From assembly GCA_041665525.1 (NCBI GenBank), contig JBAYIS010000001.1, positions 215,418 through 279,417 on the forward strand: a DNA stretch of 64,000 bases. The letters are read 5' to 3'. This DNA comes from Bacteroidota bacterium. GTDB lineage: Bacteria > Bacteroidota > Ignavibacteria > UBA10030 > UBA8401. The notes below the pieces were generated by a model. It was not told where the DNA came from and did not search any database. It worked only from the letters and a program-made list of their open reading frames with translations. Shown here one piece after another: positions 13,465-35,887 of this stretch (the first letter of the stretch is position 1; the number at the start of each line of letters is the position of its first letter). Made by a program: the position numbers and the translations under genes.

Positions 13465-13471
13465 TTTGACT

Positions 13472-15551: not shown

Positions 15552-15552
15552 T

Positions 15553-18105: not shown

Positions 18106-18128
18106 TTCACAACCTTTCAGGGAATGTT

Positions 18129-18944: not shown

Positions 18945-18951
18945 AAAGAGA

Positions 18952-20892
18952 ATGAAAATGAAAATGTTCAAATATTATTTTCTCTTTTTCCCCCTCCTCA
19001 TACGCGCACAGAATACAGTCCATTCTCTGGACCAAGATTTGATGGAAGAGTTCATGAATTCTGATAGTGAAGAACAAGATGTGCAGGCAAAAGGAGAGGA
19101 ACTGGATTTCCTGCTTTCCCATCCCGTAAATATTTCCGAACCTCATTTTGATGAGTTGTTGAAGATACCGTTTGTCTCTCCGCTTCTTGCAGAATCGATT
19201 ATTCGATTTACCGATACCAACTCCGTTACGAAGATCAGTCAACTGGAGGATGTTTTTTTGATGACACCGGTTCTTTTAGCAAAGATCACTCCATTTATTA
19301 CCGTGGAGCAACGTGAAGCGAAAAAGAGTCTTTGGTCATCAATGCCGATTAAAGCGGTTTCACGTTCCAGGTTGGAACGACGATTTCAGGGAACGAAAGG
19401 ATTTGCTGAAGGGAAATACAGCGGGGATAGGAATGGAATATATCAGCGCATCCGTCTGGGGAATGCTGATTATGAACTGGCAGCTGTTTCGGAAAAGGAT
19501 GCAGGGGAGAATTATGCAAATGCATTCGTATCTGGTTACGTGAGCATACGGAAATTAGCAAATATAGAGGATCTTGTGATTGGGAATTTTATGATTGCTT
19601 CATCGCAAGGCATGGTTTTTTCCCGTTCGATGAAACCCGGCAAAGGGGCAAATGCTGCGGATCAGGCTATGCAAAAAGGAAAGAAAATTATCCCCGTCAC
19701 TTCGACGGATGAATTTCGTTTCTTCCAGGGTGCGGCAGCAAGGATACGGTACGATGGAATAAGCATGATCGGATTTTATTCGAAAAGAACTTTGCCTGCG
19801 TCCGTTGATCCGAATGGGTCGATAAAGAGTTTTTATACATCCGGATTGTACCGCACCTCCGATGAAAAAGAAAAAATAAATACTGTTGGTGAGGTTGTAA
19901 CGGGCGGTGTTCTGGAATACTCACCGGATGGAAAGTCAACAGTTGGTATGACAGCGCTGAATGTTCATTATTCAAAGTCACTTCCGCCAAATGTGCTTGA
20001 TCTTCACGGAAAGAGTTCACTTTCTGCGGGAAGTGTTTCCTGGCTTATTCCTCTTGCCGGATTCACTTCCTTTGGAGAAATTGCGTCGAACGATGGGAAA
20101 TCCTACAGCCGGTCCATTGGCGCCGCAATAAGTATTTCAAAATCAATTTCTGCAGGATATCATCATCGATCGTATTCCGGCAAATATCGTAATCCGTTTG
20201 CACATCCTTTCGGGGAGTTGAGCGATATCAGTGACGGAGAACAGGGGAACTATCTCGGTGTTGAATTCATGGTGGAAAAAGCTTCGATCAGTTTTTATGC
20301 GGATCATTTCACCCAGCCGGCGCGATCAGATGGTTTTCCGGCGTTTGGCAAGGAAACCTTTATCGCATGTTCTCTTCCTATCGGCCCTTCTTTGGAGTCG
20401 ATGATTCAATTACGTCGAAAGTCATTTTCCTCATCGGTAGAAAAAATTCAAACAAATTACCGGTTGACAAATAATATCAAAGTCTTCTCAGGATTAAGCA
20501 TTTCTCATAGGATAGAAGTCGTTACAGTAACTAGCGAGATTACTCAACCTCCTGAACATGGGACGTTGACATTTCTCGATGCATCATTTAATGATACACA
20601 GAATGGAATTCGGTTGAAATCCAGAATAGTATTTTTTGATACACACTCATACGATTCCCGTCTATATCAATATGAATCCGATGTTGCCGGGAATTATTCA
20701 AATCCGCCATTATATGGCAAAGGAATTCGTTGGTATCTGGTTGCAGGATACGAGATCATTGATAATTTCACACTGTCACTCAAATACTCTGAAACGAAAA
20801 AACTTCATGAAGTAGTACTGGGAAGCGGAGATGATGTAATCCGCGGAAACCTGGAGAGCCGTATCGCAATGCAATTAGATTTTCAGATGTAG
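18952..20892 (+). CDS. Large outer-membrane-type protein with N-terminal helix-hairpin-helix (ComEA-like) motif
   Basis: It has a signal peptide. NISEPHFDELLKIPFVSPLLAESIIRF resembles an HhH DNA-binding motif. The remaining ~500 aa is beta-strand-like and ends ...RIAMQLDFQM. Confidence 0.45.
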   Translation: MKMKMFKYYFLFFPLLIRAQNTVHSLDQDLMEEFMNSDSEEQDVQAKGEELDFLLSHPVNISEPHFDELLKIPFVSPLLAESIIRFTDTNSVTKISQLEDVFLMTPVLLAKITPFITVEQREAKKSLWSSMPIKAVSRSRLERRFQGTKGFAEGKYSGDRNGIYQRIRLGNADYELAAVSEKDAGENYANAFVSGYVSIRKLANIEDLVIGNFMIASSQGMVFSRSMKPGKGANAADQAMQKGKKIIPVTSTDEFRFFQGAAARIRYDGISMIGFYSKRTLPASVDPNGSIKSFYTSGLYRTSDEKEKINTVGEVVTGGVLEYSPDGKSTVGMTALNVHYSKSLPPNVLDLHGKSSLSAGSVSWLIPLAGFTSFGEIASNDGKSYSRSIGAAISISKSISAGYHHRSYSGKYRNPFAHPFGELSDISDGEQGNYLGVEFMVEKASISFYADHFTQPARSDGFPAFGKETFIACSLPIGPSLESMIQLRRKSFSSSVEKIQTNYRLTNNIKVFSGLSISHRIEVVTVTSEITQPPEHGTLTFLDASFNDTQNGIRLKSRIVFFDTHSYDSRLYQYESDVAGNYSNPPLYGKGIRWYLVAGYEIIDNFTLSLKYSETKKLHEVVLGSGDDVIRGNLESRIAMQLDFQM

Positions 20893-22075: not shown

Positions 22076-23413
22076 ATGGCAACATCCACTTTCAAGATCC
22101 TCGTTTCAATCCTCCTTATTCTTTTGGTGACAACAGTTTCCTTTGTTCCCGCATTGTTCAATGGATGGACAACGTGGGACGATGATGTCTATGTCGTCGA
22201 CAATCCTTCCGTGCAGCAAATATCCGCAGAGAGCCTTGAGAGAGTTTTTACCACACCGGTTAATGGATCGTATCTTCCGTTATCGATGATCTCTTATATG
22301 ATCGATTATCAAATCGGTGGATTCGATCCGAAAGTCTTTCATGCTACGAACGTCCTGTTCCACATCCTAAATTCCTGTTTGATGTTTTTTCTTATGTATC
22401 AATTAACAGGCAGCGTTCTAGCTTCGCTTGTCGGGGGACTACTGTTTGGTATTCACCCGATGCGCGTGGAATCTGTTGCATGGATATCGGCCAGGAAAGA
22501 TGTTCTCTCCATGTTTTTCTTCCTGCTTTCATCAATCTCCTACCTTCGCTATATCAGAGTCAAAAAACAATCATGGCTGACGGCGGCATTTATTCTTTTT
22601 GTCTGTGCAATTTTGTCCAAGATTATCGTTCTGACATTTCCGCTGATCTTGCTGTTGTATGATTTTTTAAAGAAAAGAAAAGTCGATCCGGGAATTGTGA
22701 TGGAGAAAATCCCATTTGCACTTGTCGCAGCGGCTTTTTCAGTGATCGGATTAATCGGCCAACAAAGTGTCGATGCTGTGAAACGCTCGGCCAGCATTCT
22801 GGAAAACGGGATTGTATCGCTGCACGGGATTATTTTCTACATCGAAAAGTTCTTTTTGCCTATAAAACTTTCCCATCTGTATCCATACCCGTCAGATCTT
22901 CCGTTACAGTTCATCGTGTATGCATTCATTGCAATTGTTGCTTTGATCGCACTGTGGAAATACCGCCGGAATCAAATTCTACTCTTTGGAATTTTGTTTT
23001 TTATTGTCTCACTTCTGCCGGTGCTGCAATTTGTCCGTTTCAGTCAGATTTTCGCTGCGGACCGATTTACATATTTTGCTTACATCGGATTGTTTTATAT
23101 CGCTGGAATGTATTCTGCTAAAGCGTGGGATTCGGGAAAGCGGCGAATGGTCATTACATTTCTGATAATCATTACGGCAGCGTGTTCGTATCTCACGTGG
23201 GAAAGATGCGAAGTGTGGAAGGACAGCAACACCCTGTGGAAGGATATGTTATCCAAGTATCCCGAAGCGATAAGTGAAAACAGTGTGCGGAAAGGACAAT
23301 ACTTATTTCCGATCCAGCCAGTCCAGCAGACCTGTGATAAACGTGAGAGGATGCGGTGGACATCCGGGAATAAACAAATCGACCGGGTGATCAGTAATGA
23401 ACTGGCGGTTTAA
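22076..23413 (+). CDS. TMTC/PMT-like polytopic membrane glycosyltransferase-family protein, apparently lacking the usual C-terminal TPR region
   Basis: N-terminal FNGWTTWDDDVYVVDNP motif and many TM helices. The last ~37 codons read through the antisense of the convergent ferredoxin-NuoB gene. Confidence 0.5.
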   Translation: MATSTFKILVSILLILLVTTVSFVPALFNGWTTWDDDVYVVDNPSVQQISAESLERVFTTPVNGSYLPLSMISYMIDYQIGGFDPKVFHATNVLFHILNSCLMFFLMYQLTGSVLASLVGGLLFGIHPMRVESVAWISARKDVLSMFFFLLSSISYLRYIRVKKQSWLTAAFILFVCAILSKIIVLTFPLILLLYDFLKKRKVDPGIVMEKIPFALVAAAFSVIGLIGQQSVDAVKRSASILENGIVSLHGIIFYIEKFFLPIKLSHLYPYPSDLPLQFIVYAFIAIVALIALWKYRRNQILLFGILFFIVSLLPVLQFVRFSQIFAADRFTYFAYIGLFYIAGMYSAKAWDSGKRRMVITFLIIITAACSYLTWERCEVWKDSNTLWKDMLSKYPEAISENSVRKGQYLFPIQPVQQTCDKRERMRWTSGNKQIDRVISNELAV

Positions 23414-24052
23414 TTCCGGTGAATCTTTGAAGATTCCGCCGGAAATAGCACATGCGCCGAAAAGGATGTTGATCTTTGGCGACGGAACAGCGTCATAACA
23501 AAGGAATGTTGCTTCCGCCATCGCCTTTGGTAACGGACCGGTGAGAACGATACCGTCCGCATGACGCGGCGATGCGACAAATTCTATCCCAAACCTTCCC
23601 ATATCAAAATTCACATTGCTCAATGCATTCAGTTCCAATTCGCATCCATTGCATCCTCCCGCAGATATTTGACGGAGTTTCAGCGACTTGCCGAAGTATT
23701 TCCGGATTTTTTCCGACGCGATTTCAGGAGTAATCCGTTTTTGAGTCCCGGTAACCACCAATTGCTCACGAGTACTGCATGCGAGATGATATTCATTGGT
23801 AAAATGGATCGCTTTTTCCGGGCACTGCTGTTCGCAAAGGGGGCAAAAGACACAGAGACCAAGGTCGATGGATAATGGTTCAAGTGAAATTGCATTTGTT
23901 GGACAAACCGTCTGACATTCCTTGCATCCGTCCGGACATTTCTCCGGGTGGAGTTCTGGCATGCCACGGAAGAGCGGAGGCAGCGATGCATGGTGGACAT
24001 CGTGAACGATTGGGTCGCCCTGAAGGACTCGCAGTTGGATACTTTCAATCAT
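23303..24052 (-). CDS. Fusion of a 2x[4Fe-4S] ferredoxin (HycF/HyfH/NuoI-like) with a NuoB/HycG-type small subunit
   Basis: The N-terminal half has CPDGCKECQTVCP and CVFCPLCEQQCP. The C-terminal half has GGCNGCELE, GACAISGG and IPGCPPHP (NuoB/HycG cluster ligands). Confidence 0.85.
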   Translation of the reverse strand: MIESIQLRVLQGDPIVHDVHHASLPPLFRGMPELHPEKCPDGCKECQTVCPTNAISLEPLSIDLGLCVFCPLCEQQCPEKAIHFTNEYHLACSTREQLVVTGTQKRITPEIASEKIRKYFGKSLKLRQISAGGCNGCELELNALSNVNFDMGRFGIEFVASPRHADGIVLTGPLPKAMAEATFLCYDAVPSPKINILFGACAISGGIFKDSPELNRQFITDHPVDLFIPGCPPHPLTFITGLLDWLDRK

Positions 24053-24064
24053 AAGAATACCTTG

Positions 24065-25546
24065 TTATAGATCATGTCCGGAATATGAGAGATCAAAACT
24101 TTTGTTACACAGCGGGAAATCGGAAATAGCTTCGCTTCTGAGCGCCAGTCCCAGACCGTACCAATTATGGAATGATGGATCCTTAATTTTATACCGTTTC
24201 CAATCCCCGCGTTCGTCCGTGAATGCGCTATGGACAATCTCACCGCGCCAACCTTCAACGATTGAGATCACTCCGCTCTCTTTAGCCCGCGGCTGCAGTT
24301 CATTAAAAATCGGTCCCGACGGCAGATTTTCCAGTTGCTCAAATATGAAACGGATGGACTCGTCGATCTCCAACGATCGAATGCGCGCCCGCGCAAACAC
24401 ATCGCCGGTGGACAGCGTGATTAACGGTAGGGGTGAATACCGGTAAGCGCCGTATGGAAACTGGCTGCGAGTATCAAGTTCGATTCCGCTAGCGCGGGCA
24501 GCCGGACCAACCATGCCGATGGATTTTGCCCACTCGCCGCTGACCGTTCCCGTATGGTCTAACCTGGCCAGCACACTGGTTGCATCAAACATAACAGTAT
24601 TGATCGTTGAAACATCTTTTTGAACGAGTGAAAGGTTTTTTTTCAATTGTTCCAGAGCGGAATCGGAAAGATCAAACCGGACTCCTCCCGGGACGATAAA
24701 ACCGCGTCCGAATCGTGATCCGCACAAAAGTGCAGAACTGTTGATCACCATTGTCCGCAATCTTCCGTAGGAGGCGGAACCGATCGCATATCCAACATCA
24801 TTGGCGATTCCCCCCAATCCTGCAAGGTGCATGGCGATACGCTCCAATTCTTCCGCAATCGAACGAAGGGATTGTGTCCGCAAACTGATAGTTGCACGGG
24901 ACAATGATTCGACTGCCATTGCATAAGCAATGGAGTGGCCGATGGTTGTATCACCGGTAATGGATTCACACAAAATACTCTGTTGATTGGGGGATGCTGT
25001 CAACATCATTTTTTCGATGCCGCGATGCTGATATCCCAGATTGATCTCCAGATGATACACCAGTTCGCCGTGACATTGAAAACGGAAATGTCCCGGTTCA
25101 ATCACGCCGGCGTGAATCGGTCCAACGGCAACTTCATGAACTTCCTCACCCTCCATTCGATACATTGAATACGGTTGATCATCCAGTACCACAGTCTGTT
25201 TCCTGACAGGCCGCAGCCAAGGATGTCCTTCCGGAATGATATGGTGGTTCTCAGCCAGTTCACATTCAAAGTAGTGTGTTTGATGATGTACACCGGCAAG
25301 GCTGTTGAATTTTCTCTGTGCTGCGGAAAATTTCGTTCCAATCAGATGTAATGATGAGGTTGACGGATTACTGAGCAAGGCAATCACGGTAGTATCCGGC
25401 TGCGACGACTCAAGACCGAACAAACCGATCATTCGTGCATGCGTCAGCATTGCATCCCGCAGCGTTCCCTCAAATTCCTGAACGGAGACGATCGGAATAT
25501 CCTTGATACGAAAGGGTTGATGATTTTGTGCATTCAATGTCTTCAT
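24065..25546 (-). CDS. NuoC-NuoD / HycE-like large subunit lacking all NiFe-ligand cysteines (Ehr-type)
   Basis: VGPIHAGVIEPGHFRF and LGYQHRGIEK are typical of group-4 large subunits. The L1 position reads ESITGDTTIGHSIAY. The C-terminus reads FDLSYSGHDL where DPCxxC is expected. Confidence 0.85.
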   Translation of the reverse strand: MKTLNAQNHQPFRIKDIPIVSVQEFEGTLRDAMLTHARMIGLFGLESSQPDTTVIALLSNPSTSSLHLIGTKFSAAQRKFNSLAGVHHQTHYFECELAENHHIIPEGHPWLRPVRKQTVVLDDQPYSMYRMEGEEVHEVAVGPIHAGVIEPGHFRFQCHGELVYHLEINLGYQHRGIEKMMLTASPNQQSILCESITGDTTIGHSIAYAMAVESLSRATISLRTQSLRSIAEELERIAMHLAGLGGIANDVGYAIGSASYGRLRTMVINSSALLCGSRFGRGFIVPGGVRFDLSDSALEQLKKNLSLVQKDVSTINTVMFDATSVLARLDHTGTVSGEWAKSIGMVGPAARASGIELDTRSQFPYGAYRYSPLPLITLSTGDVFARARIRSLEIDESIRFIFEQLENLPSGPIFNELQPRAKESGVISIVEGWRGEIVHSAFTDERGDWKRYKIKDPSFHNWYGLGLALRSEAISDFPLCNKSFDLSYSGHDL

Positions 25547-26991
25547 AATGTGATTCCAAAATCCTTTGAGATTTGTATGACGGTGTCGTACAGTTGTGCC
25601 GGCATGAACAATCCCAGCACAATCAACAGAAGAAGCAATGTGAATGATGCAGCATGGACAATATCGAATTTTTCCACTGCAAGCGGTTTATGGTTCTTCG
25701 GAGGTGCAGTATAGAGCATCTGAAAAACTGTTTTGCTCATCCCAACGAAGATGAAAAAGAGGAAAAACAGTACTGCAGCCAGCAGTAACGGTTTTGTCAT
25801 CAATCCCTGAAAGATCAACAGTTCGCTGAAGAAAATGCCAAACGGCGGCATCGCAATAATGGCGAAGAAACCGAAAAGGAAAAGCCAACCGGTCCACGGC
25901 ATGGTATTAAGCACATCCCAAACGGAGGTAACATCGCGTGACCGGTAGGTACGATGAATATTGCCGGCATTCAGGAAAAGAACGACTTTGGTCAATGAAT
26001 TATAAACCACATGTAGCATTGCTCCAACAAACGCAATACCCCCGGTACCGATGCCAAGCGTGATGAGACCGAGGTGTTCCACACTGGAATAGGCGAGCAT
26101 ACGCTTGTAATTGACCACTTTGAACATGAAGACAAAAGCGACAAAGAGAGAGAACATGCCGCCAATGATCATGATCGTGCGGGCAAAATCCGCAGTAGCA
26201 GTGGGTATCATAATTTGATACACTCGCAGCAAACCAAGCAATGCCGTTCCCCGCAAAGAACCGGACATTAAAGCTGCCGCCGGACTTGGCGCGTTGCTCG
26301 TTGCATCGATATCGCCGGGATGCATCGGCGCTATGCCGATCTTAGTGCTGAGTCCGACAAAGACGAAAATGAAACTTGCTTTTAGCCAGATCGGATTCAG
26401 GTGTGTGGCATAATGAGAGTAGGAAGAGATCAACAGTTGATGCCCCGAGAGAACGGTGCCGCTTGCAGAGAGAGAAAGAAAGAGGAATCCGATGAATGCA
26501 AATGCGATACCGACCGAGACCAGGAAGAGATATTTCCACATCGCTTCCAGAGATTCCTCGTCCCGGTAATAATAGACCAGCGGTGCAACGCTGAGTGTTG
26601 TTGCTTCCGATGCAACCCAGAACAAACCGAGGTGGTTGCTGATCAGTGCCAGCGTATTGGCGAAGAGATACAAATTCAGCATCATAAAATAGAGCAGCTT
26701 GCTCTTTTCTTCGTTCACCAGAGCCGGGCGGTTGAGATAGGAATACGAAACGAGCACTACCCAGAAATACACGTGGGAGAGAACAAGCAGGAATAATCTG
26801 CTCAATGCATCATAACGGATGAATTCATTTTCTTCAGGCCGAACCATCCCGGTGAAAATTGCATACGATACTGCCAGATGCAGAATTGCGATGACAAGAG
26901 AAACGGAAAACTGCACCAGTCTGTTCTTCACGAGATAGTTAATTGCAACACCTGCCAGTGGAAGTCCGGCGATAAAAAATAGTTCAGTCAT
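25543..26991 (-). CDS. NuoN/NuoM/HyfF-type antiporter-like membrane subunit
   Basis: 482-aa polytopic protein with proton-conducting-membrane-transporter family features (LAYSSVEHLG). It overlaps the downstream gene by 4 nt. Confidence 0.8.
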   Translation of the reverse strand: MTELFFIAGLPLAGVAINYLVKNRLVQFSVSLVIAILHLAVSYAIFTGMVRPEENEFIRYDALSRLFLLVLSHVYFWVVLVSYSYLNRPALVNEEKSKLLYFMMLNLYLFANTLALISNHLGLFWVASEATTLSVAPLVYYYRDEESLEAMWKYLFLVSVGIAFAFIGFLFLSLSASGTVLSGHQLLISSYSHYATHLNPIWLKASFIFVFVGLSTKIGIAPMHPGDIDATSNAPSPAAALMSGSLRGTALLGLLRVYQIMIPTATADFARTIMIIGGMFSLFVAFVFMFKVVNYKRMLAYSSVEHLGLITLGIGTGGIAFVGAMLHVVYNSLTKVVLFLNAGNIHRTYRSRDVTSVWDVLNTMPWTGWLFLFGFFAIIAMPPFGIFFSELLIFQGLMTKPLLLAAVLFFLFFIFVGMSKTVFQMLYTAPPKNHKPLAVEKFDIVHAASFTLLLLLIVLGLFMPAQLYDTVIQISKDFGITL

Positions 26992-27623
26992 TAATCTTTT
27001 AACCTCCCAAGGACGGACACGTCTTGTTTTGCGAAAGTAGAACTGATCTTGTTAATCGCGATCCCCATCAGGAAAACCACCACAAAGACATCCAACATTG
27101 CGCCGAGTTCCACCAGCGTCGGCATTTCTGCCGCCACGGATGTTCCGAACAGGAAAATACCGTTCTCCAGGATGAGGAAGCCGACAACGTGTACAATCAG
27201 TTTCTTTCTGAAAATGATTAAGTAAATACCGGTAATCATCGCCGAAAAAGCCGACGCAAACGGTATCGGTTCAATCGGTGTGAAACCGGAAAGAACGTGC
27301 GATGCAACGAAGATCGCCGAAAGCGATGCGACCGTCAACAATAAGAAATTGAACGGCTGTATGCTCGGCTCCACGATCCGTTTCACATCCAGCTCGATCA
27401 CAATCTTGTCGATAAAGCGGGGTATGACGATTGTCTTAATGATGAATGACATCACCGGAATGATAAGGATATGTACTGACAGATGATCGATGAATGGGAA
27501 TATCATAATCACCGAGAGCAAGACTCCCTGCATGCGAAGGATCGAAACATACGTCTTGATCCGTGATGTCACGACAAGATACAGGAGTGTGAGACAAAAA
27601 AGAATGCTAAGGACATTTTCCAT
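26991..27623 (-). CDS. HyfE-like small membrane subunit (NuoK-related)
   Basis: 210-aa hydrophobic protein located between the HycD-like and HyfF-like genes, as in the hyf operon. Confidence 0.6.
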   Translation of the reverse strand: MENVLSILFCLTLLYLVVTSRIKTYVSILRMQGVLLSVIMIFPFIDHLSVHILIIPVMSFIIKTIVIPRFIDKIVIELDVKRIVEPSIQPFNFLLLTVASLSAIFVASHVLSGFTPIEPIPFASAFSAMITGIYLIIFRKKLIVHVVGFLILENGIFLFGTSVAAEMPTLVELGAMLDVFVVVFLMGIAINKISSTFAKQDVSVLGRLKD

Positions 27624-27635
27624 ATGAATCTCTTG

Positions 27636-28565
27636 TTAGTGACGAACGAATGTGTAGATAAGTAAGTTCAATATGCCAATGGCGGTGGCAAATAACAGGT
27701 ACTGCGGAATAACTTTCATTTTAAACCGTGCGATCATTGTTTCAACCCATGCCACCACGGAAGAAAGCAGCACCAGGACGATCAGGAAAACCGAAAATCC
27801 AATCCAGTGATTCTGCATGCTAAACGGATTGAAGAAGGATGCTTCATAGACCGCATACACCATCAGTTTGATATAACTGGAATATTGATACAGAAACAAA
27901 TCGATGCCGGAATTATCGAGGATCATCACCTCGTGGATCATGGTCAGTTCCAGGTGCGTCGTCGGATCGTCCACCGGCATTCGGGAACATTCCGTGACCA
28001 TCAAAAAGAATGCGGAAATAGAACTGACGATGATAAACACAATCGATGTCGGATTATCAAGATGGATGGAATGATAGATGTCGTAGATCGACGTGTATCC
28101 GGTGATGAATGCCAGACTTCCGAGCGTAAAAAAGTAAATCGGTTCCGCAAACACTGCGAAGGTTGCTTCCCGGGCGGCACCCATTCCTTCAAATGAACTG
28201 CCGATATCCATCGCACCAAGGATTTGGAAGAATCTTGCCAAACCAAGCAGATATGCGAAGACAATGATGTCTCCGTTGAAACTCAGCAGCGGACGAACGT
28301 ATCCGATCGGCAGCATCAAACTGGAAATGAGGATAGCAGAAAACGACACGACCGGTGCCAGTCTGCTGACAAACGATGCAGTGGTGGCATAGATCGTTTC
28401 TTTCCGGCTTAACCGAAGTAGTTCGTAATATGGTTGCCAGACCGGTGCACCGATCCTGCCGGTTAATAAGGCTTTTTGTTTGTTGATCAGCCCGACCAGC
28501 AGCGGAGATACGCCGATGATGAAGAAAAAGGGAAGAAGTCCCTGAAAACTTAGAAGTATGTCCAT
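27636..28565 (-). CDS. NuoH/HycD/HyfC-type membrane subunit
   Basis: 309 aa. N-terminal LINKQKALLTGRIGAPVWQPYYELLRLSRK matches the HycD/NuoH signature (R.GP...QPY.D..K). Confidence 0.8.
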   Translation of the reverse strand: MDILLSFQGLLPFFFIIGVSPLLVGLINKQKALLTGRIGAPVWQPYYELLRLSRKETIYATTASFVSRLAPVVSFSAILISSLMLPIGYVRPLLSFNGDIIVFAYLLGLARFFQILGAMDIGSSFEGMGAAREATFAVFAEPIYFFTLGSLAFITGYTSIYDIYHSIHLDNPTSIVFIIVSSISAFFLMVTECSRMPVDDPTTHLELTMIHEVMILDNSGIDLFLYQYSSYIKLMVYAVYEASFFNPFSMQNHWIGFSVFLIVLVLLSSVVAWVETMIARFKMKVIPQYLLFATAIGILNLLIYTFVRH

Positions 28566-30601
28566 ACGATTGCAATCCCGCCGTACAGTAGTACGACAAT
28601 TAACATATATAAGATATAGTACCGGATATCGGTCCGGCTTAAAAATTCTACTGTATTAATTTTTGAAAGAATGTAAGAGTATAACGGCGCAACGAACTTT
28701 ACGTCAGAAAAATCCTGTGCATGTGAACTAAAGTGCGACCGGACAGGGAAAATCGATCTTGGCGGTACAACATGCTTTTCCCGATGCAGCATTGCAGAAG
28801 CGATATTGTTGATCTCATCAGCGTAAGACGAAGCGGTGTACTGCATCCGGGCAGTCTGCAGCGGATATCCGCATCCCCAGGCGGGAGCGACGCGCTGCCA
28901 GGCGTTCACTTTTTTCCAGACGATGATGGAACCGATGGTAACCAAAACGCTGGCAAACACCAGAGTGATTACGTCCCATTGAGCGAACATGGAGAACGGT
29001 TGGACAATTATCCCCCAGCGATTATAGGTAATGACGGTAGAAATCACTCCAAGAACCGATTGTGGATACACTCCGAACAGGATGCACAGTATTGCGAGCA
29101 TACCCAGGGAGAGATAGTCTGTAACTGAAACGTTGAACTGATGATTTCCTTTCCGTGCCGTACCAAGGAACATCACACTATTGATCTTTGTGAAACACGC
29201 CAACGCTAATCCTCCGACGAATGCCAAACCAACAGACATCAACAACATAAAAAGAGGAAAATATTCACCGAGGAGCGACGCTGTTTCAAAAAATCCTTTG
29301 TAGATCAAAAATTCGGACATGAAACCATTCAACGGAGGAATACCGCTGATAGCGATGGACCCCGTCAGAAAAAGGGCAACGAAGAACGGTGCGCGATGGA
29401 CAATGCCGCCCATTAATTCAATATCTCGCGTATGATAATTTTGATAAATAGTCCCGGTGCCGAGGAAAAGTAAACTTTTAAAGATTGCATGGTTAAACGT
29501 ATGGAAAAGTGCACCTCCGAATCCGAGCCAAATCAACGATTGCGCAGAATAGGATATGCCGATAACACCCAAACCGATGCCGATACCGATGATTCCGATA
29601 TTCTCGATGGAATGATAAGCGAGTAGTTTTTTGATATCGTGTTGCGCCAGCGCGTACCATACTCCGAAGATAGCACTGAAGAGGCTCGCTGCAAGAATCA
29701 TCAGACCCATCCACGCAGGAAGAGGGGAACAAAATTCTATCAGTCGAAATATCCCATAGATCCCTGTCTTGATCACAATACCGGAGAGGAAAGCGCTCAG
29801 TACTGTCGGTGCGATGGGATGAGCCCACGGCAGCCAGAAATGGAACGGCATAAATCCCGCTTTAATCCCGAAGGCTGTAAACCCGAACAGGCATGCAATA
29901 TAGAACATCCAACCATTGTCTGTAGTAAAGTGAAAATCGGTAAAATACCAACTCCCCGAATGCCGTTGGAGGATGAAAAAAAATATGTACAACACGAATG
30001 TGGCGGCGTGGGTCGTACAGAAATATATGAAACTCCCTTTTTGGACTTCCGGTTTTTCCTTCTCCAACAGCATTCCAAGATAGGCCATCAACGTCATCAA
30101 TTCCCAGAAGATGAGAAAGGCAATTGCATGATTTGCGAGAACCAGCAATTGCGTCGACAGCAGCAGCATCGAAAAGATTGCAAGGTAAGCACGGACCGGC
30201 ATACCCCGTTGCAAATAACGCTGAATGTACGTTCGGGTGGAGAGAACGATCGGAATTGAGACTGTTGCGATAACAAGCAAGAAATACAGCCCGAGTCCGT
30301 CAGCACGGAAAAACTTCTCCCATTGTGGTATATCAGAAATAACCGAAAGTATTTTCGGAAGTATAAGAATGCGATTGACGGCAAAAATGAGCATTAAGGA
30401 CAATCCCACAATGAGAACAGCAGTGTATATTGATAATGCCCGCAGTATCGGTCGTACGGTTACTGCGATTATCGAACCGGCAAAAAAGAGAACGCATCCT
30501 ATGATGAAGAAATAGTCCACGATTATTGGAGTAAATGACTCATGAAATTCTTTTCCATTAAATAAATATCGAAAGTAGTAAATAGAACAACAGCACTGCA
30601 A
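28550..30601 (-). CDS. HyfB/HycC/NuoL-type antiporter-like subunit, copy 3 (start uncertain)
   Basis: LAYHSIENIG, FHTFNHAIFKSLLFLG and the C-terminal WGCGY...MQYTASSYADE extension. The N-terminal ORF extension overlaps the upstream paralogue by 44 nt. Confidence 0.8.
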   Translation of the reverse strand: MQCCCSIYYFRYLFNGKEFHESFTPIIVDYFFIIGCVLFFAGSIIAVTVRPILRALSIYTAVLIVGLSLMLIFAVNRILILPKILSVISDIPQWEKFFRADGLGLYFLLVIATVSIPIVLSTRTYIQRYLQRGMPVRAYLAIFSMLLLSTQLLVLANHAIAFLIFWELMTLMAYLGMLLEKEKPEVQKGSFIYFCTTHAATFVLYIFFFILQRHSGSWYFTDFHFTTDNGWMFYIACLFGFTAFGIKAGFMPFHFWLPWAHPIAPTVLSAFLSGIVIKTGIYGIFRLIEFCSPLPAWMGLMILAASLFSAIFGVWYALAQHDIKKLLAYHSIENIGIIGIGIGLGVIGISYSAQSLIWLGFGGALFHTFNHAIFKSLLFLGTGTIYQNYHTRDIELMGGIVHRAPFFVALFLTGSIAISGIPPLNGFMSEFLIYKGFFETASLLGEYFPLFMLLMSVGLAFVGGLALACFTKINSVMFLGTARKGNHQFNVSVTDYLSLGMLAILCILFGVYPQSVLGVISTVITYNRWGIIVQPFSMFAQWDVITLVFASVLVTIGSIIVWKKVNAWQRVAPAWGCGYPLQTARMQYTASSYADEINNIASAMLHREKHVVPPRSIFPVRSHFSSHAQDFSDVKFVAPLYSYILSKINTVEFLSRTDIRYYILYMLIVVLLYGGIAIVWTYF

Positions 30602-32672
30602 TCGAAAAACTGATATAGACCTGAATCTTTCCGGCTTGCAGCCATGTGAATCTGCCGGTCGTCCAATGAAATGCAGTCATCAAAGGGGAAATAATTTTGT
30701 ACAGAACAAAATCCCGGGTAGTGGTTCGAAATGTTGACGGCTGCGGGAACGAATATATGGGAAGTGTGATCTCTTTTTCAACATTCAGCGCTGTGCTGGC
30801 GATTGTCACCATCTCATCTGAAAATGAAGTGCCGGAATATTGCATTCGGGAAGTTGGGAATTCATAACCGCAACCCCATGCCCGGGCGATTCGCTGCTGC
30901 ATGCTCAATTTCTTCCATCCGATTAAAATCACAACGGTGACCAGCACACTCAGAAAGACCAGTGACATCACATCCCATTGCGCAAACATAGCGTACGGTT
31001 GAATGCGGATTCCCCAATGATTAAATGCGATCACCGAAGAGATAGTGTTCAGCAACGATTGTGGGAAAACACCGAATAGAATGCAGAAAAACGCCAGGAT
31101 ACCCAATGCAATGTATTCGGTTGCTGAAACAGTAAAGGTAACGCGGTCAGTCCGCGCCGAACCCAGGAACATCACCCCGTTGACTTTCGTGAATGCTGCC
31201 AGTGCTAATCCGCCGACAAAGGCTAATCCTACCGACATTAACAACATGAAGAGCGGAAAATATTTGCCGAGGACTGAAGCGGATTCCAGAAATCCTTTAT
31301 AGATCAAAAATTCGGACATGAAACCGTTGAGCGGGGGAATGCCGCAGATAGCGATGGATCCGATAAGGAATAAGCCGGTGAACCAAGGCGCCCGGTGGAC
31401 GATTCCTCCCATCAGATCGATACGCCGCGTATGATAATTCCTGTAGATAACACCGGATCCGAGGAAAAGTAAACTCTTAAAGATGGCATGATTGAATGTG
31501 TGAAAAAGTGCACCGCCAAATCCAAGCCAGACAAGTGATTGAACGGAATACGCGACGCCGATTACGCCGAGGCCAATCCCGATTCCGATAATGCCGACAT
31601 TTTCGATGGAGGAATAAGCGAGCATCCGTTTGATATCCGTTTGAGCAAGTGCATTCCAAATACCGAAGATGCCGGTGAATATTCCGATCCCGATCATGCC
31701 CAGTCCGATCCATGCTGAAAGCGGTGAACAGAATTCAACGATTCGGAAAATTCCGTATATACCGGTTTTCAGAATTACCCCGGAAAGAAAAGCACTCAGA
31801 ATTGTTGGCGCTATGGGATGAGCCATCGGCAGCCAGAAATGGAACGGCATAAAGCCTGCTTTAATGCCGAATCCCATCAAACCGAATAGACAGACGATAT
31901 AGAAGACCGCGCCGCTCTCCGGTGTGATATGAAAACTGCTGAACATCCAGCTGCCGGAATGCTCATGCAGAAGAAAGAAAAAGATGTAGAGAAAAAATGT
32001 TGCAACATGTGTTGTTACAAAATAAATGAGGCTTCCATGCTGCACTTCTTCTTTCTCTTTGTCCAGAAGCATTCCCAGATACGCTGTGAGTGTCATCATT
32101 TCCCACAGGACGAGGAATGCAATTGCGTGTGTTGACAGAACCAATAATTGTGTTGCGAGAAACATCACCGCGAATGCGGCGCAAAAAGCACGGACAGCTG
32201 ACTCTTTATGAAGATACGACAGAAGATATGAATATGACGCTAACACCGTCGGTATGGCTGATACAGTAATAACCAGCAGAAAAAAAAGGGCCAGTCCGTC
32301 TGCTTGAAAGAAAATAGAGATTGAAGGGAACAGCGAAAACACCGGTGTGATAGTCGGGAGCGACAGGATTTGAATTAACGCGAAAGAGAAGTTTAGCGAC
32401 AGTCCTGCAATAAGGATCACCACATAAATCGTCAGCGCCCGTTTAAGAGGACGGATGAACAATGCACCCACTGCACCGATCAGAAGGAGACTACATCCTA
32501 TTGTAAATAAAACATCCACAAAACGTCCTATAGTATGAGGAAGAACGGCTTTCGTAAAAGAAAAGCGCGTGCCGATGCAAACTGTTATAAATAAAATGCC
32601 AAATATAAATAGAATATTAGAACAACAATGGAAAACGTGACATAAATCTGTATTTGACTTGACTGGAGCCAT
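30558..32672 (-). CDS. HyfB/HycC/NuoL-type antiporter-like subunit, copy 2 (start uncertain)
   Basis: Collinear with copy 3 over nearly its full length (for example MGGIVHRAP and GIPPLNGFMSEFLIYKGF are identical). The ORF start overlaps copy 1 by 88 nt, so the real start is probably internal or non-ATG. Confidence 0.8.
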   Translation of the reverse strand: MAPVKSNTDLCHVFHCCSNILFIFGILFITVCIGTRFSFTKAVLPHTIGRFVDVLFTIGCSLLLIGAVGALFIRPLKRALTIYVVILIAGLSLNFSFALIQILSLPTITPVFSLFPSISIFFQADGLALFFLLVITVSAIPTVLASYSYLLSYLHKESAVRAFCAAFAVMFLATQLLVLSTHAIAFLVLWEMMTLTAYLGMLLDKEKEEVQHGSLIYFVTTHVATFFLYIFFFLLHEHSGSWMFSSFHITPESGAVFYIVCLFGLMGFGIKAGFMPFHFWLPMAHPIAPTILSAFLSGVILKTGIYGIFRIVEFCSPLSAWIGLGMIGIGIFTGIFGIWNALAQTDIKRMLAYSSIENVGIIGIGIGLGVIGVAYSVQSLVWLGFGGALFHTFNHAIFKSLLFLGSGVIYRNYHTRRIDLMGGIVHRAPWFTGLFLIGSIAICGIPPLNGFMSEFLIYKGFLESASVLGKYFPLFMLLMSVGLAFVGGLALAAFTKVNGVMFLGSARTDRVTFTVSATEYIALGILAFFCILFGVFPQSLLNTISSVIAFNHWGIRIQPYAMFAQWDVMSLVFLSVLVTVVILIGWKKLSMQQRIARAWGCGYEFPTSRMQYSGTSFSDEMVTIASTALNVEKEITLPIYSFPQPSTFRTTTRDFVLYKIISPLMTAFHWTTGRFTWLQAGKIQVYISFSIAVLLFYLLLSIFI

Positions 32673-34561
32673 TTAAAACGATCCGTAAACCAGGCCAGAC
32701 CCGTCATGCACGGCTTCACGATCTTAAAAAGGATGAAATCCTGCACATTGGTTCTGAATCTGCTGGGCAATGGGAATATGACATGCGAAATGCTGACCTC
32801 ATTCTCTGCGGTCAATGCCTTACCGGCAATGTTGACTATCGTATCGGAAAAGGAGGTTCCTGTATATTGCATTCTCACGGACTGTCCGGGATAACCGCAT
32901 CCCCATGGCAAACTGGTGCGCGATGAATTACGGACGATTATTTTGTTCTTCCAGACCATCAACAAAGAGATGATTAACAGAACACCGAAGGCAGTCAGTC
33001 CGACGGTGTGCACTGTTTCCACAGATGTACTCATAGTTTGAATATGACTTGTTGGAAAGAGTCCGGAAAATATTGTGACACTCATTCCGACGATCCATTC
33101 GGGAAAGATTCCCAAGAGAACAACGATAGCGGTCAACGAAAGAAGAGAGATCAATTCTGCTGAATTCATGCGCAGCGGTTGTAGTGGCATGGATTTTTCT
33201 CTGCCAAGAAAGATCATAGAGAATGTTTTAGAAAATGCGACGACTGCCAATCCACCGACGAATGCAAGAATGACAGCGGCAATAAGCATGAAGAATGGGA
33301 AGTATCCATGTAAAACATTGGACGCTTCAAAAAAACTGCTGAAGATTAAGAATTCGGAAGCAAATCCATTGAGCGGAGGAAGTCCGGAGATTGCGAGCGA
33401 TCCTGTCAAAACTATTCCGCCGAAAAGTGGTGCTGATTTCATTAGTCCGCCCATCTTTTCCATGTTGCGGTGATGAAAATATCGTTGGATCGTTCCTGCA
33501 CTCATAAATAATAGTGATTTGAAAACGAAATGATTGAGTGTTTGGAACAATGCTCCGGATAATCCGAGAAATGTAACGAACGGTTGTTGATATGCTATGC
33601 CGAACATTGAAACGGAAAGAGATAGTCCAATGATCCCTATGTTTTCCACAGAGGAATAGGCGAGCATCCGCTTCAGGTCCTTTTGCGTTAACGCATTCCA
33701 AATTCCCATTACTGCTGTTCCACCTGATACGGCGAGCAGTGCTGAGGCATAAAAATGATCTGTTGGCTGAATCCAAGTGATCAATCGGATCAGTCCGTAG
33801 ATCCCTGTCTTTGGCATAATAGCGGATAATGCTGCCGAAATATGTGTTGGAGCAACAGGATATGCTTCTGGTTTCCAAAAATGGAACGGCATGAATCCGG
33901 CTTTCATTCCAAAGCCGATGAATCCTGTCCAAAATACCGTTGAAATCACGGCGGGGAGAGCGGCGGGTATGGAGAAATGTGCAAATTCCCAGCTTCCTGT
34001 CTGCCAATGTAGAAGAATGAACATTATATAGAGGAAAAGAGTCCCGATATGTGTTGCCACAAAGAAGATCAGGCTTCCTCTTTGCACTTCATTCTTTTCC
34101 CGTTCAAGAAGGATTGAAAGATACCCGGAAAGCGCCATAATCTCCCACGCGGTCAGGAAGAGAAACGCATGTCCGGCAACAACAACCAACTGCATGGAAA
34201 AGAACAGCAGTACCGTTGCGACAATTGTCGGTTTCAATGATCGGTGGTACGCATGCGGTGTCAATTCACCGATGCCATTAATAGAAACGATGATACCGCC
34301 GATTTGGATGATACCGAGAAAAAAGAGGGAGAGAGGATCGAAATGCAATGCGATTGTCCCGAATCCCGGGTGGATAAACAATGGGACATCGAATGGAACC
34401 GTTTGGACAAATGCCAGGATGGTAAATACAAGACCGAACGACATCGCAGTTATGATCGACCCATGCACTACGCGGTTCAGCAACAGTTGATTGTGAGTCA
34501 CCGCTGCAGCAACAAGGGAAAGGACCAAGATGAAACCGTCAATAAAAAAAAACTCGATCAT
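32585..34561 (-). CDS. HyfB/HycC/NuoL-type antiporter-like subunit, copy 1
   Basis: LAYSSVENIG, FQTLNHFVFKSLLFMSAG and WGCGYPGQSVRMQYTGTSFSD. The start overlaps the EIIA-like gene stop by 4 nt. Confidence 0.8.
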   Translation of the reverse strand: MIEFFFIDGFILVLSLVAAAVTHNQLLLNRVVHGSIITAMSFGLVFTILAFVQTVPFDVPLFIHPGFGTIALHFDPLSLFFLGIIQIGGIIVSINGIGELTPHAYHRSLKPTIVATVLLFFSMQLVVVAGHAFLFLTAWEIMALSGYLSILLEREKNEVQRGSLIFFVATHIGTLFLYIMFILLHWQTGSWEFAHFSIPAALPAVISTVFWTGFIGFGMKAGFMPFHFWKPEAYPVAPTHISAALSAIMPKTGIYGLIRLITWIQPTDHFYASALLAVSGGTAVMGIWNALTQKDLKRMLAYSSVENIGIIGLSLSVSMFGIAYQQPFVTFLGLSGALFQTLNHFVFKSLLFMSAGTIQRYFHHRNMEKMGGLMKSAPLFGGIVLTGSLAISGLPPLNGFASEFLIFSSFFEASNVLHGYFPFFMLIAAVILAFVGGLAVVAFSKTFSMIFLGREKSMPLQPLRMNSAELISLLSLTAIVVLLGIFPEWIVGMSVTIFSGLFPTSHIQTMSTSVETVHTVGLTAFGVLLIISLLMVWKNKIIVRNSSRTSLPWGCGYPGQSVRMQYTGTSFSDTIVNIAGKALTAENEVSISHVIFPLPSRFRTNVQDFILFKIVKPCMTGLAWFTDRFKWLQSSQIQIYVTFSIVVLIFYLYLAFYL

Positions 34562-35226
34562 CGTTTATGCTGTTCCTCAAACGTAGCGATGATGGAAATT
34601 AGATCCTGATACGCGGCGCGCTGTTCCAGTGCCTGGCATATCTCTTTTTTTATGAGAAGATAACTGACGTGCGCAAGAAGGCTTAAATGTTGTTTGATCG
34701 TCTGCGAAATTATCAGTATCAGCGTATGCACCGGTTTCCCATCAAGAGAGTTCAGTGATAGAGCTTTTTTCGGGAAGAAGAAATGCACCAGCGGTTTGTC
34801 TCGTCCGATCACCAGCGGGATTCTCGGATGAGGAAGGCTGATACCGTTACCGATAGCAGTGGACATCAGTTGTTCCCGGCTCTTCAGTAGTTGGACAACA
34901 ACATCCTTATCCACCGAAGCATCGAACAATGCAAGATTCGTCATTTGCTCGATGTAGTGTGATTCCGTGAAATCGCAATTGTAGAAAATGGATTGTACAT
35001 CCAGTAACGGCAGCAAACTTTTAATCTGGTATTCCACAAAATGGCGGCTGCCGGAAATATTGAGCGGCATGTTTCTTCCCAATGCCCATTCAATCACTTT
35101 ATCTTTGTTGAACACGACTCTGTCCTGAATCACCTGATGAGGGATCTCCTTTGATTTCACCAGATTCACGATCTCTTTTTCGGACAGGACTAAGAATTCC
35201 GCGACATCCTTAATTTTTAGGTCCAC
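34558..35226 (-). CDS. HTH (excisionase/MerR-like HTH_17) + PTS EIIA-Ntr (PtsN-like) domain regulator
   Basis: The N-terminus IKDVAEFLVLSEKEIVNLVKSKEIPHQVIQDRVVFNKDKVIEWAL is HTH_17-like. The C-terminal part has the EIIA type-2 signature GNGISLPHPR with the phosphorylatable His. Confidence 0.7.
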   Translation of the reverse strand: MDLKIKDVAEFLVLSEKEIVNLVKSKEIPHQVIQDRVVFNKDKVIEWALGRNMPLNISGSRHFVEYQIKSLLPLLDVQSIFYNCDFTESHYIEQMTNLALFDASVDKDVVVQLLKSREQLMSTAIGNGISLPHPRIPLVIGRDKPLVHFFFPKKALSLNSLDGKPVHTLILIISQTIKQHLSLLAHVSYLLIKKEICQALEQRAAYQDLISIIATFEEQHKR

Positions 35227-35623
35227 CGTTTTTTTGCCCTTTCACTCCTAATTGGGATAATCTTTGTTGTGTTAATTGTATCTGTTCCTTCAATTCCAGT
35301 TTTGCTTTTTGCAGCATCGATATTTTACTGTTAATCTCGTTCAAATGACTGTCCAAATATACCAGCGTCTTTTCTTTTGCTTCTAATGGTTTTTTGAGTG
35401 TAAAGTATAATCCAATCACGTCTTTAATCTCTTCAAGCGTAAGGCCGACGTGTTTCAGATTTCTGATGCGGGTAAGAATGGCAAGCGTATCATCATCGTA
35501 GTAGCGATATCCGGCGGTACTGACTTGGGAAGGTGTAATCAGCCCGCGTTGTTCATAGTACCGCAACGTTCGAGGAGTGACCCCTGCTTGTTTCGCAATT
35601 TCACCGATTTTATACACTGTCAA
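35210..35623 (-). CDS. MerR-family transcriptional regulator
   Basis: YKIGEIAKQAGVTPRTLRYYEQRGLITPS plus a C-terminal coiled coil. The ORF-track start is a TTG at 35623. The GTG at 35617, preceded by AAAGG, is a more plausible start. Confidence 0.85.
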   Translation of the reverse strand: MTVYKIGEIAKQAGVTPRTLRYYEQRGLITPSQVSTAGYRYYDDDTLAILTRIRNLKHVGLTLEEIKDVIGLYFTLKKPLEAKEKTLVYLDSHLNEINSKISMLQKAKLELKEQIQLTQQRLSQLGVKGQKNGGPKN

Positions 35624-35645
35624 CCTTTACGTTAACGACAAGGTT
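35622..35645. promoter_or_regulatory. 24-bp near-perfect palindrome at the 5' end of the MerR gene (candidate operator)
   Basis: AACCTTTACGTTAACGACAAGGTT has outer arms AACCTT/AAGGTT and inner palindrome CGTTAACG. It lies directly upstream of the likely GTG start. Confidence 0.4.
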
Positions 35646-35887
35646 AAAGTAAAAAAAAATGAAGTGAAATTCAATGATCATTGGCACTGGGGAGAGTCTC
35701 ATTTTCTTTCGGAGTCATGGTGAGCCAGCCCCGAAGGGACGAGTCGAACCTTTAATCCATCTGACGATCCGAAGGATCACATTGTGAAGGCATCGAGTCT
35801 GTGTCAATAACTACTGTTTGCGAAGATGTTTGTGGATTATCAGTGCAATTCAACTTTTTTCCTTCTACATTAACCCACTGAAAAATT

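Follow-up and report, generated by a model that had tools for sequence, protein, structure and literature searches.

A nickel-free, Ehr/Hyq-type relative of group-4 hydrogenases encoded by a ten-gene cluster of an Ignavibacteria-type Bacteroidota genome

We analyzed a 64,000-nucleotide (nt) stretch of DNA (the window; contig JBAYIS010000001.1, positions 215,418 to 279,417) from a Bacteroidota bacterium of the Ignavibacteria lineage. At positions 23303-35623 it carries ten intact, co-directional reading frames on the minus strand, which encode a predicted membrane complex related to the group-4 [NiFe] hydrogenases and to respiratory complex I. On our alignments a conserved pocket devoid of cysteines stands where the NiFe site was. 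To judge from the sequences, the complex belongs to a selected Ni-free family (Ehr/Hyq) and is not a decayed hydrogenase, since the replacement motifs are kept at 31-86% identity across phyla and in rhizobial Hyq. In our preferred reading, to which we give about an even chance, this descendant of the group-4 hydrogenases would act as an oxidoreductase that oxidizes ferredoxin, pumps ions and uses a non-H2 acceptor, with menaquinone as the probable one.

The large subunit (493 amino acids (aa), 24065-25546) is a fusion of a NuoC-like and a NuoD/HycE-like part (Complex1_49kDa). Its best match in the PDB was HycE of Escherichia coli (7Z0S chain E) with an E-value of 7e-46. A first-pass annotation of the window had stated that the four NiFe cysteines are absent. 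The residue-by-residue comparison with HycE in 7Z0S confirmed this, as all four are replaced. In the first ligand motif (L1), RVCGIC of HycE is aligned to SITGDT with threonine in both cysteine columns (ESITGDTTIGH versus RVCGICGFAH). In the second motif (L2), DPCYSC is aligned to DLSYSG, with serine and glycine in the cysteine columns (DLSYSGHDL versus DPCYSCTDR). The signature motifs of the large subunit are VGPIHAGVIEPGHFRF, with ESITGDT replacing RxCGxC, and the C-terminus FPLCNKSFDLSYSGHDL-stop takes the place of DPCxxCxxR and the tail. The chain terminates in ...GHDL without a cleavable tail; HycE and HyfG run 32 residues further, and this tail is removed by the maturation protease. The N-terminal 130 residues are weakly NuoC-like (PF00329, E-value 0.0018, a match that passes the threshold in the 74% relative P0027). 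A Foldseek search with the predicted fold put HycE (7z0s_E, TM-score 0.65) first, followed by fused NuoCD.

Homologues were collected from a genome collection, metagenome contigs, plasmids and chromids, and by searching the full set of 1.84 billion cluster representatives with HMMER. A single-sequence pattern scan of the genome contigs yielded about 35 Ehr-type loci together with 25 ordinary complex I loci of Bacteroidales/Prevotella, which served as an outgroup; Geobacter was not among the genomes retrieved. All homologues lacking the cysteines have three motifs in common: VGPxHAGxIEPGHFRF, [ER]xx[AST]G[DE][STA] in place of L1, and FP[LIV][CIV]NKS[FY]x[LC]SY[SAC]G[HFNY]DL-stop in place of L2. 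Their carriers are found among Bacteroidota, Ignavibacteria-type metagenome-assembled genomes (MAGs), Omnitrophota, Planctomycetota, Desulfobulbales, Desulfovibrionaceae, Lentisphaerota, Methanomassiliicoccales and Bacillota as well as in Variovorax, Cupriavidus, Allomeiothermus and Rhizobium. Large-subunit identities span 31-86% overall (BLAST) and amount to 33-36% at the low end over the NuoD-like part. Among the best 150 representatives, which stand for clusters at 50% identity, 112 bear the strict C-terminal signature and only about eight bear RxCGxC together with ...CYSCxDR. Since the replacement motifs are kept across phyla at down to ~31% identity, the data point to purifying selection on the new, Ni-free pocket.

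A neighbor-joining (NJ) tree was calculated with HycE/HyfG, MbhL, NuoD and HyqG of Rhizobium johnstonii as references. In this tree one clade comprises 120 signature-bearing sequences and 10 fragments or variants and contains zero NiFe sequences; bootstrap support for its strict monophyly is weak (11/40). Immediately outside it lie the NiFe-bearing representatives, and further out HycE/HyfG, MbhL and NuoD; the position of the NiFe-bearing sequences fits the nearness of the family to group 4f reported in 2023, when the function of Ehr was still described as unknown (PMC10284858). The window protein nests with Bacteroidota and Ignavibacteria-type sequences, then with Variovorax, and not inside a NiFe group-4 clade, the placement that the first-pass annotation had named as speaking against its view. 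Public data contain thousands of close homologues, and the family is common in metagenomes. The earlier description of the system as "functionally undescribed" therefore has to be given up: a family that is large, common and named is uncharacterized rather than undescribed.

One could also regard the cluster as the decaying, non-functional remnant of a Hyf-type hydrogenase, given that four catalytic cysteines are lost and maturation genes were not found nearby. This explanation is effectively refuted by the conservation pattern described above, with the ten reading frames intact and both the Fe-S ligands and the pump residues retained; in addition, the Geobacter homologues have been detected as proteins (PMC7894505).

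The small subunit (249 aa, 23303-24052; Fer4 x2 and Oxidored_q6) consists of a HycF/NuoI-like domain with eight cysteines (two [4Fe-4S] clusters) fused to a NuoB/HycG-like domain. Our alignment took in HyfH+I, HycF+G, NuoB and HyqI. Four cysteines of the N2 type, located in GGCNGCE ... GACAISGG ... PGCPP, are aligned with those of HycG, HyfI, NuoB and HyqI. The predicted three-cluster wire is thus intact in the window version. The N2-type cysteines are invariant in the whole family, and all eight cysteines of the ferredoxin domain are found in the window protein and its relatives. In all loci from Omnitrophota, Planctomycetota and the CG11 'Deltaproteobacteria' (L005-L015, L024) the HycF-like domain is present with 1-4 cysteines only. 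These small subunits appear to have lost both distal [4Fe-4S] sites and keep the N2-type site. HyqI has no ferredoxin domain.

The membrane arm is built up from six predicted subunits. Three proteins of ~650 aa with a Proton_antipo_M domain have the hydrogenase-4 subunit B model of NCBIfam as their best match (462-467 bits). These are HyfB1 (658 aa, 32585-34561, 464 bits), HyfB2 (~653 aa, 30558-32519) and HyfB3 (~656 aa, 28550-30520). They are followed by a subunit similar to HycD/HyfC/NuoH (309 aa, 27636-28565; Pfam NADHdh, E-value 6e-29), a HyfE-like subunit (210 aa, 26991-27623; NCBIfam NF008556, E-value 1e-16; Pfam Oxidored_q2, E-value 5e-4), whose C-terminal half is weakly NuoK-like, and a further antiporter-type subunit similar to HyfF (482 aa, 25543-26991; NCBIfam hydrogenase-4 subunit F, E-value 2e-78). 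All three HyfB copies keep the glutamate of transmembrane helix (TM) 5, the lysines of TM7 and TM8 and the glutamate of TM12. HyfF keeps the TM5 glutamate, the TM7 lysine and the TM12 glutamate and has no TM8 lysine, which is also the case in E. coli HyfF. The charged residues predicted to be needed for ion translocation are therefore retained in all four antiporter-like subunits. The first-pass annotation had spoken of a version with four antiporter-like subunits; this holds for four genes with pump residues, whose products may or may not all belong to one complex.

HyfB1 is a divergent paralogue with 38-41% identity to copies 2 and 3. HyfB2 is 61% identical to HyfB3 and 62% identical to the single HyfB of the 76% relative (L061). 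HyfB3 is 68% identical to this single HyfB and 77% identical to copy 3 of the 86% relative (L064). By position and identity, HyfB3 can be assigned as the closest orthologue of the single HyfB of the relatives and HyfB2 as a duplicate. The 86% relative has three HyfB genes, the 83% relative at least two, and the 76%, 61% and 60% relatives have one each; the closest single-copy relatives possess one HyfB plus HyfF. The triplication is, on this evidence, recent and local, being confined to the window and the 83-86% relatives. The HyfB copies of the window share 70-77% identity with those of the 86% relative, compared with 97% for HycD and HyfE, and hence the HyfB copies evolve faster. None of the copies has a lengthened C-terminal extension. 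The paralogues either lengthen the pump chain or, just as likely, serve as alternative distal modules. Complex I variants with an extra NuoM ('2M'), reportedly described by Chadwick et al. in 2018, are a parallel to the three tandem HyfB.

Additional membrane-arm genes were seen elsewhere. In an Omnitrophota MAG (L008, JAGWKL010000001.1) a second HyfB-HycD-HyfE-HyfF set at 12137-17110 has no large or small subunit ('head-less'); it directly follows a complete EIIA-HyfB-HycD-HyfE-HyfF-Large-Small operon and is succeeded by a Ppx/GppA-like gene and others. Plasmid 3 of Variovorax sp. PBL-E5 (L067) carries two hyf-like clusters 3.4 kb apart (3920-11204 and 14616-19443). The first is of the Ehr type with a ferredoxin-NuoB fusion, is headed by a regulator of the CopG/ribbon-helix-helix type, as in Cupriavidus CH34, and encodes a large subunit that is 43% identical to that of the window by tblastn and 49% identical in the NuoD-like part. 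The second cluster, annotated as hyfB/hyfF, continues beyond the end of the plasmid segment covered.

The Ehr/Hyq family is already known, was named between 2005 and 2013 and is biochemically uncharacterized, so the window copy is not categorically new. The genes EhrA-S of Geobacter sulfurreducens (GSU0739-0745) are said to go back to Coppi (2005) and the Ehr class to Marreiros et al. (2013). What is new in the window copy is the extra pair of HyfB paralogues and the presence of MerR and helix-turn-helix (HTH)-EIIA genes inside the operon. The assignment to Ehr in the first-pass annotation agrees with the published working definition, i.e. large and small subunits of the group-4 kind lacking the NiFe ligands and clustered with NuoH-like and Mrp/NuoL-type subunits. 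It also agrees with the composition in Margulisbacteria, which comprises a NuoC-NuoD fusion, a NuoI-NuoB fusion, HyfB, HyfF, a NuoH-like subunit and HyfE (PMC6349859, Supplementary Note 4); the six-gene core of the window and both of its fusions are identical to this set. The window differs in its three HyfB, which make four antiporter-like genes, and in the two regulator genes, and the formate dehydrogenase (FDH)/NuoEF partner locus proposed for Margulisbacteria is not in view in it. The class has been used in PMC6349859, PMC10284858 and PMC7894505. Geobacter Ehr (GSU0739-45) includes the NuoL-like EhrA-1, the HyfE-like EhrC, EhrL and EhrS, and was detected as protein, most abundantly on formate (PMC7894505). 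By composition and missing ligands, the Ehr-type assignment of the cluster is supported, and it is set beside the Geobacter type Ehr by description. For group-4 or hyf genes in Ignavibacteria and for newer work on Ehr function, our literature search found only genome surveys and the Geobacter proteomics.

The second close relative is Hyq, known from Azorhizobium caulinodans and other diazotrophic Alphaproteobacteria, where its expression depends on NifA (PMC2650096). The order regulator, B, C, E, F, G, I is common to hyqRBCEFGI and the window. HyqG encoded on pRL11 of R. johnstonii has all three signature motifs (...SYSGHDL) and lies within the same NJ clade; the large subunits are 31-36% and the NuoB parts 47% identical. 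FPLCNKS is found in both the window large subunit and R. johnstonii HyqG, and the conserved Cys-491 of HyqG belongs to this CNKS motif (numbering of PMC3357923). The missing CxxC pairs were noted by the Hyq authors themselves (PMC2650096, PMC3357923, PMC2930871). Differences concern HyqI, which is NuoB-only whereas the window small subunit adds a domain for two [4Fe-4S] clusters, and HyqR, a 98-aa HTH protein of the XRE type in contrast to the MerR and HTH-EIIA regulators of the window. Moreover, HyqB is single, and hyq is controlled by NifA/sigma-54 and occurs in aerobes, whereas the window has no nif context. The comparison ties the metagenomic 'Ehr' and the genetically studied rhizobial Hyq together, as far as shared motifs and tree placement can.

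Unlike the window system, Hyq has been linked to H2 recycling by genetic evidence. The family might accordingly be a genuine H2-metabolizing enzyme with a non-canonical site, like the 'endo-hydrogenase' proposed for Azorhizobium Hyq, operating without Hyp/HycI maturation. We consider this rather improbable, because the NiFe ligands are absent and we know of no chemistry for H2 activation by aspartate, serine, threonine or lysine side chains. Several observations speak for it. Beside the shared motifs and the hydrogenase-type EPGHFRF loop that is kept, deletion of hyq caused a ~10-fold rise of H2 loss in diazotrophic culture and less microaerobic H2 evolution (PMC3357923), hyq is within the NifA regulon (PMC2650096), and R. 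centenum, which has hyq and no hup/hyp, is said to recycle H2 (PMC2930871). The peak of the Geobacter Ehr subunits on formate (PMC7894505) would fit as well. These Hyq data are, however, whole-cell H2 balances; the authors state that there was no cell-free assay and call a NiFe site 'uncertain, if not unlikely' (PMC3357923). The phenotypes could be indirect, e.g. through an altered electron supply to nitrogenase, and hyp and hycI were not found in the window. The statement of the first-pass annotation that the function of Ehr is not established experimentally is correct as far as biochemistry is concerned, but it had overlooked the genetic and physiological H2 data for Hyq.

Each subunit is closest to its Hyf/Hyq namesake, then to Hyc, with Nuo much further away; the HycD-like subunit, for instance, is 37% identical to HyqC, 30% to HyfC, 27% to HycD and 21% to NuoH (BLAST). 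As had been noticed earlier, the order mirrors hyfB-I of E. coli: B-C-E-F-G-(H+I) is retained, with HyfH and HyfI, separate in E. coli, fused in the window. In contrast to the E. coli Hyf and Hyc systems, the window is without the L1/L2 cysteines, the HycI-cleavable tail, and HyfA/HycB, HyfD, HyfJ, FdhF, FhlA/HyfR and the hyp genes. With complex I (including the ferredoxin-dependent enzymes that have 11 subunits or are of the NDH-1/Fpo type) it shares homologues of NuoB, C, D, H, I and L/M/N, the N2 ligands, the glutamates and lysines of the pumps and, as proposed, the principle of an Fe-S chain leading to an interface pocket and on to antiporter-like pumps. It differs in that the quinone ligands of NuoD and genes for NuoA, J, K, E, F and G are missing, and identities are lower (21-25%; NuoB part 38%).

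The membrane-bound complexes MBH (6CFW) and MBS (6U8Y) of Pyrococcus furiosus are ferredoxin-dependent, Mrp-linked relatives that differ in their Mrp-type membrane arm. MbhL keeps the cysteines. MBS shows that a Ni-free member can be an active respiratory enzyme. A sulfane-sulfur (polysulfide) reductase similar to MBS, with catalysis in the region of the proximal cluster, would be in line with MBS being the solved Ni-free relative, which matches by sequence (E-value 1.6e-23) and by fold, with the SulP-family neighbors in some relatives and with the sulfur-cycling Desulfobulbales among the carriers. We nevertheless regard it as very improbable. The match to MbsL is far weaker than that to HycE, MbsL is without the Ehr motifs, there are no adjacent sulfur-metabolism genes in the window, and many carriers (rhizobia, Variovorax, Cupriavidus) are aerobes that are not known to respire sulfur.

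Based on these comparisons we propose the following mechanism for a ferredoxin-oxidizing Ehr complex. A low-potential soluble donor, ferredoxin or flavodoxin, would deliver electrons to the two distal clusters, from where they would move to the proximal cluster. The acceptor would bind and be reduced where the large, small and HycD-like subunits meet, and the released energy would be used to export H+ or Na+ via HycD, HyfE, HyfF and HyfB. This acceptor is not H+ at a NiFe centre. For the window organism menaquinone is our best, tentative guess in view of the QrcABCD menaquinone reductase encoded in the window, which also makes a menaquinone pool probable. The corresponding cluster (214-5072, minus strand) is located ~18 kb from the operon and consists of the multihaem cytochrome c QrcA (4491-5072, above the NCBIfam cut-off), the molybdopterin-like QrcB (2324-4438), the Fe-S protein QrcC (1547-2320) and the NrfD-type QrcD (214-1554, above the NCBIfam cut-off). 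It is preceded by a gene for a 317-aa protein with a GcvH-like domain (5069-6022, minus strand). Qrc is best known from sulfate reducers, and its occurrence in a genome of the Bacteroidota/Ignavibacteria type is noteworthy. The molybdopterin protein at 2324-4438 was also considered as a hidden formate dehydrogenase; this was rejected, as it is QrcB.

Several points weigh against this mechanism. The β1-β2 loop of the large subunit, HAGVIEPGHFRF, is of the hydrogenase type (EPGHFRF) and has no equivalent of Nqo4 His38, and a glycine occupies the column of Nqo4 Tyr87 (Thermus thermophilus numbering); both quinone ligands of complex I are thus missing. The AlphaFold2 monomer model of the large subunit has a predicted local distance difference test score (pLDDT) of 66, with values below 50 at residues 112-172 and 458-493, i.e. 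in the β1-β2 loop and at the C-terminus, which makes the pocket loops unreliable. Ferredoxin input via distal clusters is not family-wide, because Omnitrophota and Planctomycetota have lost the ligands and Hyq has no such domain. Finally, Margulisbacteria with Ehr are reported to be without quinone biosynthesis (PMC6349859) and Ehr is also present in Methanomassiliicoccales, so that a quinone is not the universal acceptor of Ehr.

As the first-pass annotation had it, two regulator genes form part of the operon, and Pfam confirmed both. The MerR-family regulator (~135 aa, 35210-35617; MerR_1, PF13411, E-value 8e-24) is also found at the operon head in L061, L064 and L076 and is restricted to the Bacteroidota/Ignavibacteria-type branch. 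Its 137-aa sequence contains no cysteine and all NCBIfam equivalog scores are below the cut-offs; being cysteine-free, it does not belong with the metal-thiolate sensors such as CueR and ZntR. Directly 5' of its start, at 35622-35645 (minus strand), lies a dyad AACCTT-N12-AAGGTT that is nearly identical in L061, where the rest of the upstream region is unalignable. We infer that this dyad is a candidate MerR operator.

The second regulator (222 aa, 34558-35226) combines an HTH_17 domain with an EIIA(Ntr)-like domain (PTS_EIIA_2, PF00359, E-value 4e-18). In an alignment with E. coli PtsN, H133 is the equivalent of PtsN His73 and the motif GNGI[AS][IL]PH is invariant. Stand-alone PtsN has ~160 aa and lies in an rpoN-ptsN-npr context, whereas the window protein adds an N-terminal HTH_17 region of ~70 aa and heads an ehr operon. 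The gene is located directly 5' of HyfB in 11 loci from three phyla and one MAG labeled Deltaproteobacteria; this arrangement is shared by the window, its 59-91% relatives, Omnitrophota, Planctomycetota and the said MAG. It has diverged in step with the large subunit (co-inherited) and can be regarded as an effectively conserved seventh operon gene in three phyla, which is new here. We also considered HyqR as an EIIA homologue and rejected this in view of its XRE-type HTH. HTH-EIIA(Ntr) and MerR would serve as dedicated regulators of transcription; the switch of the former would probably be the phosphorylation of H133 via a relay of the nitrogen phosphotransferase system (PTS) type. Each of the four Desulfobulbales loci has, 5' of the operon, genes for a histidine kinase and for a response regulator of the sigma-54 kind.

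The EIIA gene and the genes around it bear on a further explanation, an Mrp-like machine serving primarily ion homeostasis under EIIA(Ntr)-type control, in which the remaining Fe-S cluster would gate or sense instead of driving turnover and which would work together with co-located transporters. PtsN of E. coli regulates K+ transport (TrkA, KdpD). A SulP+STAS transporter gene is found directly 5' of the EIIA gene in six loci (L004, L005, L009, L012, L023, L063), STAS-only genes directly 3' of the small-subunit gene in three (L005, L012, L024), and TrkA and TrkH directly 3' of the small-subunit gene in Desulfopila aestuarii DSM 18488 (L026, 12460-15320). The adjoining HTH-EIIA and HyfB genes, the distal clusters lost in Omnitrophota and Planctomycetota and absent from Hyq, the expanded antiporter module of the window and the head-less set of L008 would all be compatible with such a role. 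We consider it rather improbable all the same, as the family-wide invariance of the N2-type cysteines and pocket motifs is hard to explain without redox chemistry and the window protein keeps all eight cysteines of the ferredoxin domain. Transporter neighbors are present in a minority of loci only, and SulP, STAS and Trk genes are not among the neighbors of the window operon.

A bolder idea is unlikely as it stands. The invariant set of Glu/His/Arg (IEPGHFRF), Gly-Asp-Ser/Thr and Asn-Lys-Ser/Ser-Tyr that took the place of the NiFe site would form a new site for catalysis or proton loading, to which one proximal [4Fe-4S] cluster alone supplies electrons or a signal. Ehr/Hyq would then be a distinct class of redox-driven or redox-gated pumps wired to the nitrogen-PTS (EIIA), SulP/STAS and Trk, which the window lineage has expanded to four pump modules. 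If true, four modules would raise the ion/electron ratio or switch the ion specificity between paralogues.

Pfam and NCBIfam reproduced the domain assignment of all ten operon proteins, so the ten co-directional genes and their domains stand as first described, and the cluster boundaries were reproduced as well. The overlapping or nearly abutting boundaries that had been reported hold for most junctions. The exceptions are the 'overlaps' of 88 nt and 44 nt at HyfB2 and HyfB3, which are artefacts of taking the longest open reading frames (ORFs), extending to 32672 and 30601, respectively. The likely GTG starts at 32519 (HyfB2) and 30520 (HyfB3) leave gaps of 65 nt and 37 nt instead, and the same gaps precede both genes in the gene calls of the 86% relative. 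The longest MerR ORF begins with TTG 35623; GTG 35617 is the most likely start according to the alignment with L061. Since the remaining junctions overlap by 1-17 nt or are spaced by 12 nt, a single operon of ten genes is plausible, and there may be internal promoters ahead of HyfB2 and HyfB3. Matches to sigma-70 promoters were not above shuffled sequences (19 vs 21.1) with a tool that does not cover Bacteroidota-type promoters, and terminator-like matches lay mostly within genes and were uninformative. Recent horizontal acquisition was considered and rejected: the GC content of the cluster (0.44-0.48) equals that of the flanks and gives no sign of transfer.

Next to the operon, the intergenic region 35690-35800 (minus-strand reading) contains two short UUCG-capped hairpins, GATCCTTCGGATC and GTCCCTTCGGGGC, beside a GGTTCGACTC stretch. 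Rfam and ARAGORN gave no match for this region, which is not conserved in L061. At the other end, a 445-aa membrane protein (22076-23413) converges on the small-subunit gene with a 111-nt overlap with the gene end. Together with ORFs of 271 and 646 aa (all three within 18129-20892 and 22076-23413) it has no Pfam match, and the position of these ORFs is kept in L064.

The flanks of the operon consist of housekeeping genes. The first-pass annotation had seen no FDH, CO dehydrogenase, NuoEFG, NuoA/NuoJ, hyp or HycI gene there, and indeed none of FDH, CO dehydrogenase, NuoEFG, hyp and hycI was found within the 64-kb window. At 6812-10397 an unusual trio of co-directional genes encodes a sensor histidine kinase, an M54 (archaemetzincin-type) peptidase and a sigma-54-dependent response regulator; a Pyr_redox_3 flavoprotein follows at 10394-11443. 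A gene of the ATP synthase alpha/beta family with F1-beta-like domains is located at 11588-12997, with no other ATP-synthase gene detected adjacent to it. A family-B DNA polymerase of 785 aa (52406-54763, minus strand) in a bacterial chromosomal context adjoins a DUF4249 gene and a TonB-dependent receptor gene. Rfam and ARAGORN identified six tRNAs only in the window, in clusters at 50433-50924 (Gly-GCC, Cys-GCA, Leu-TAA, Leu-GAG) and 58066-58306 (Ser-GGA, Ser-CGA), the latter followed by two tandem AhpC/TSA peroxiredoxin ORFs (58335-59383).

Ehr/Hyq is among the most widespread relatives of complex I without an assigned reaction and stands at the evolutionary junction of hydrogenases and complex I. 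The sequence signature described here separates this Ni-free family from true group-4 hydrogenases, and the comparison of loci indicates that some phyla can do without the electron-input clusters. The conserved EIIA(Ntr)-type gene and the recurrent anion and K+ transporter neighbors are new functional leads, and the three tandem HyfB could report on the tuning of pump number. The window lineage itself is uncultured, but the family has cultured carriers, namely Desulfopila aestuarii, Desulforhopalus singaporensis, Cupriavidus metallidurans CH34, Variovorax sp. PBL-E5, Allomeiothermus silvanus and Rhizobium johnstonii 3841, in which the question of its function is directly testable.

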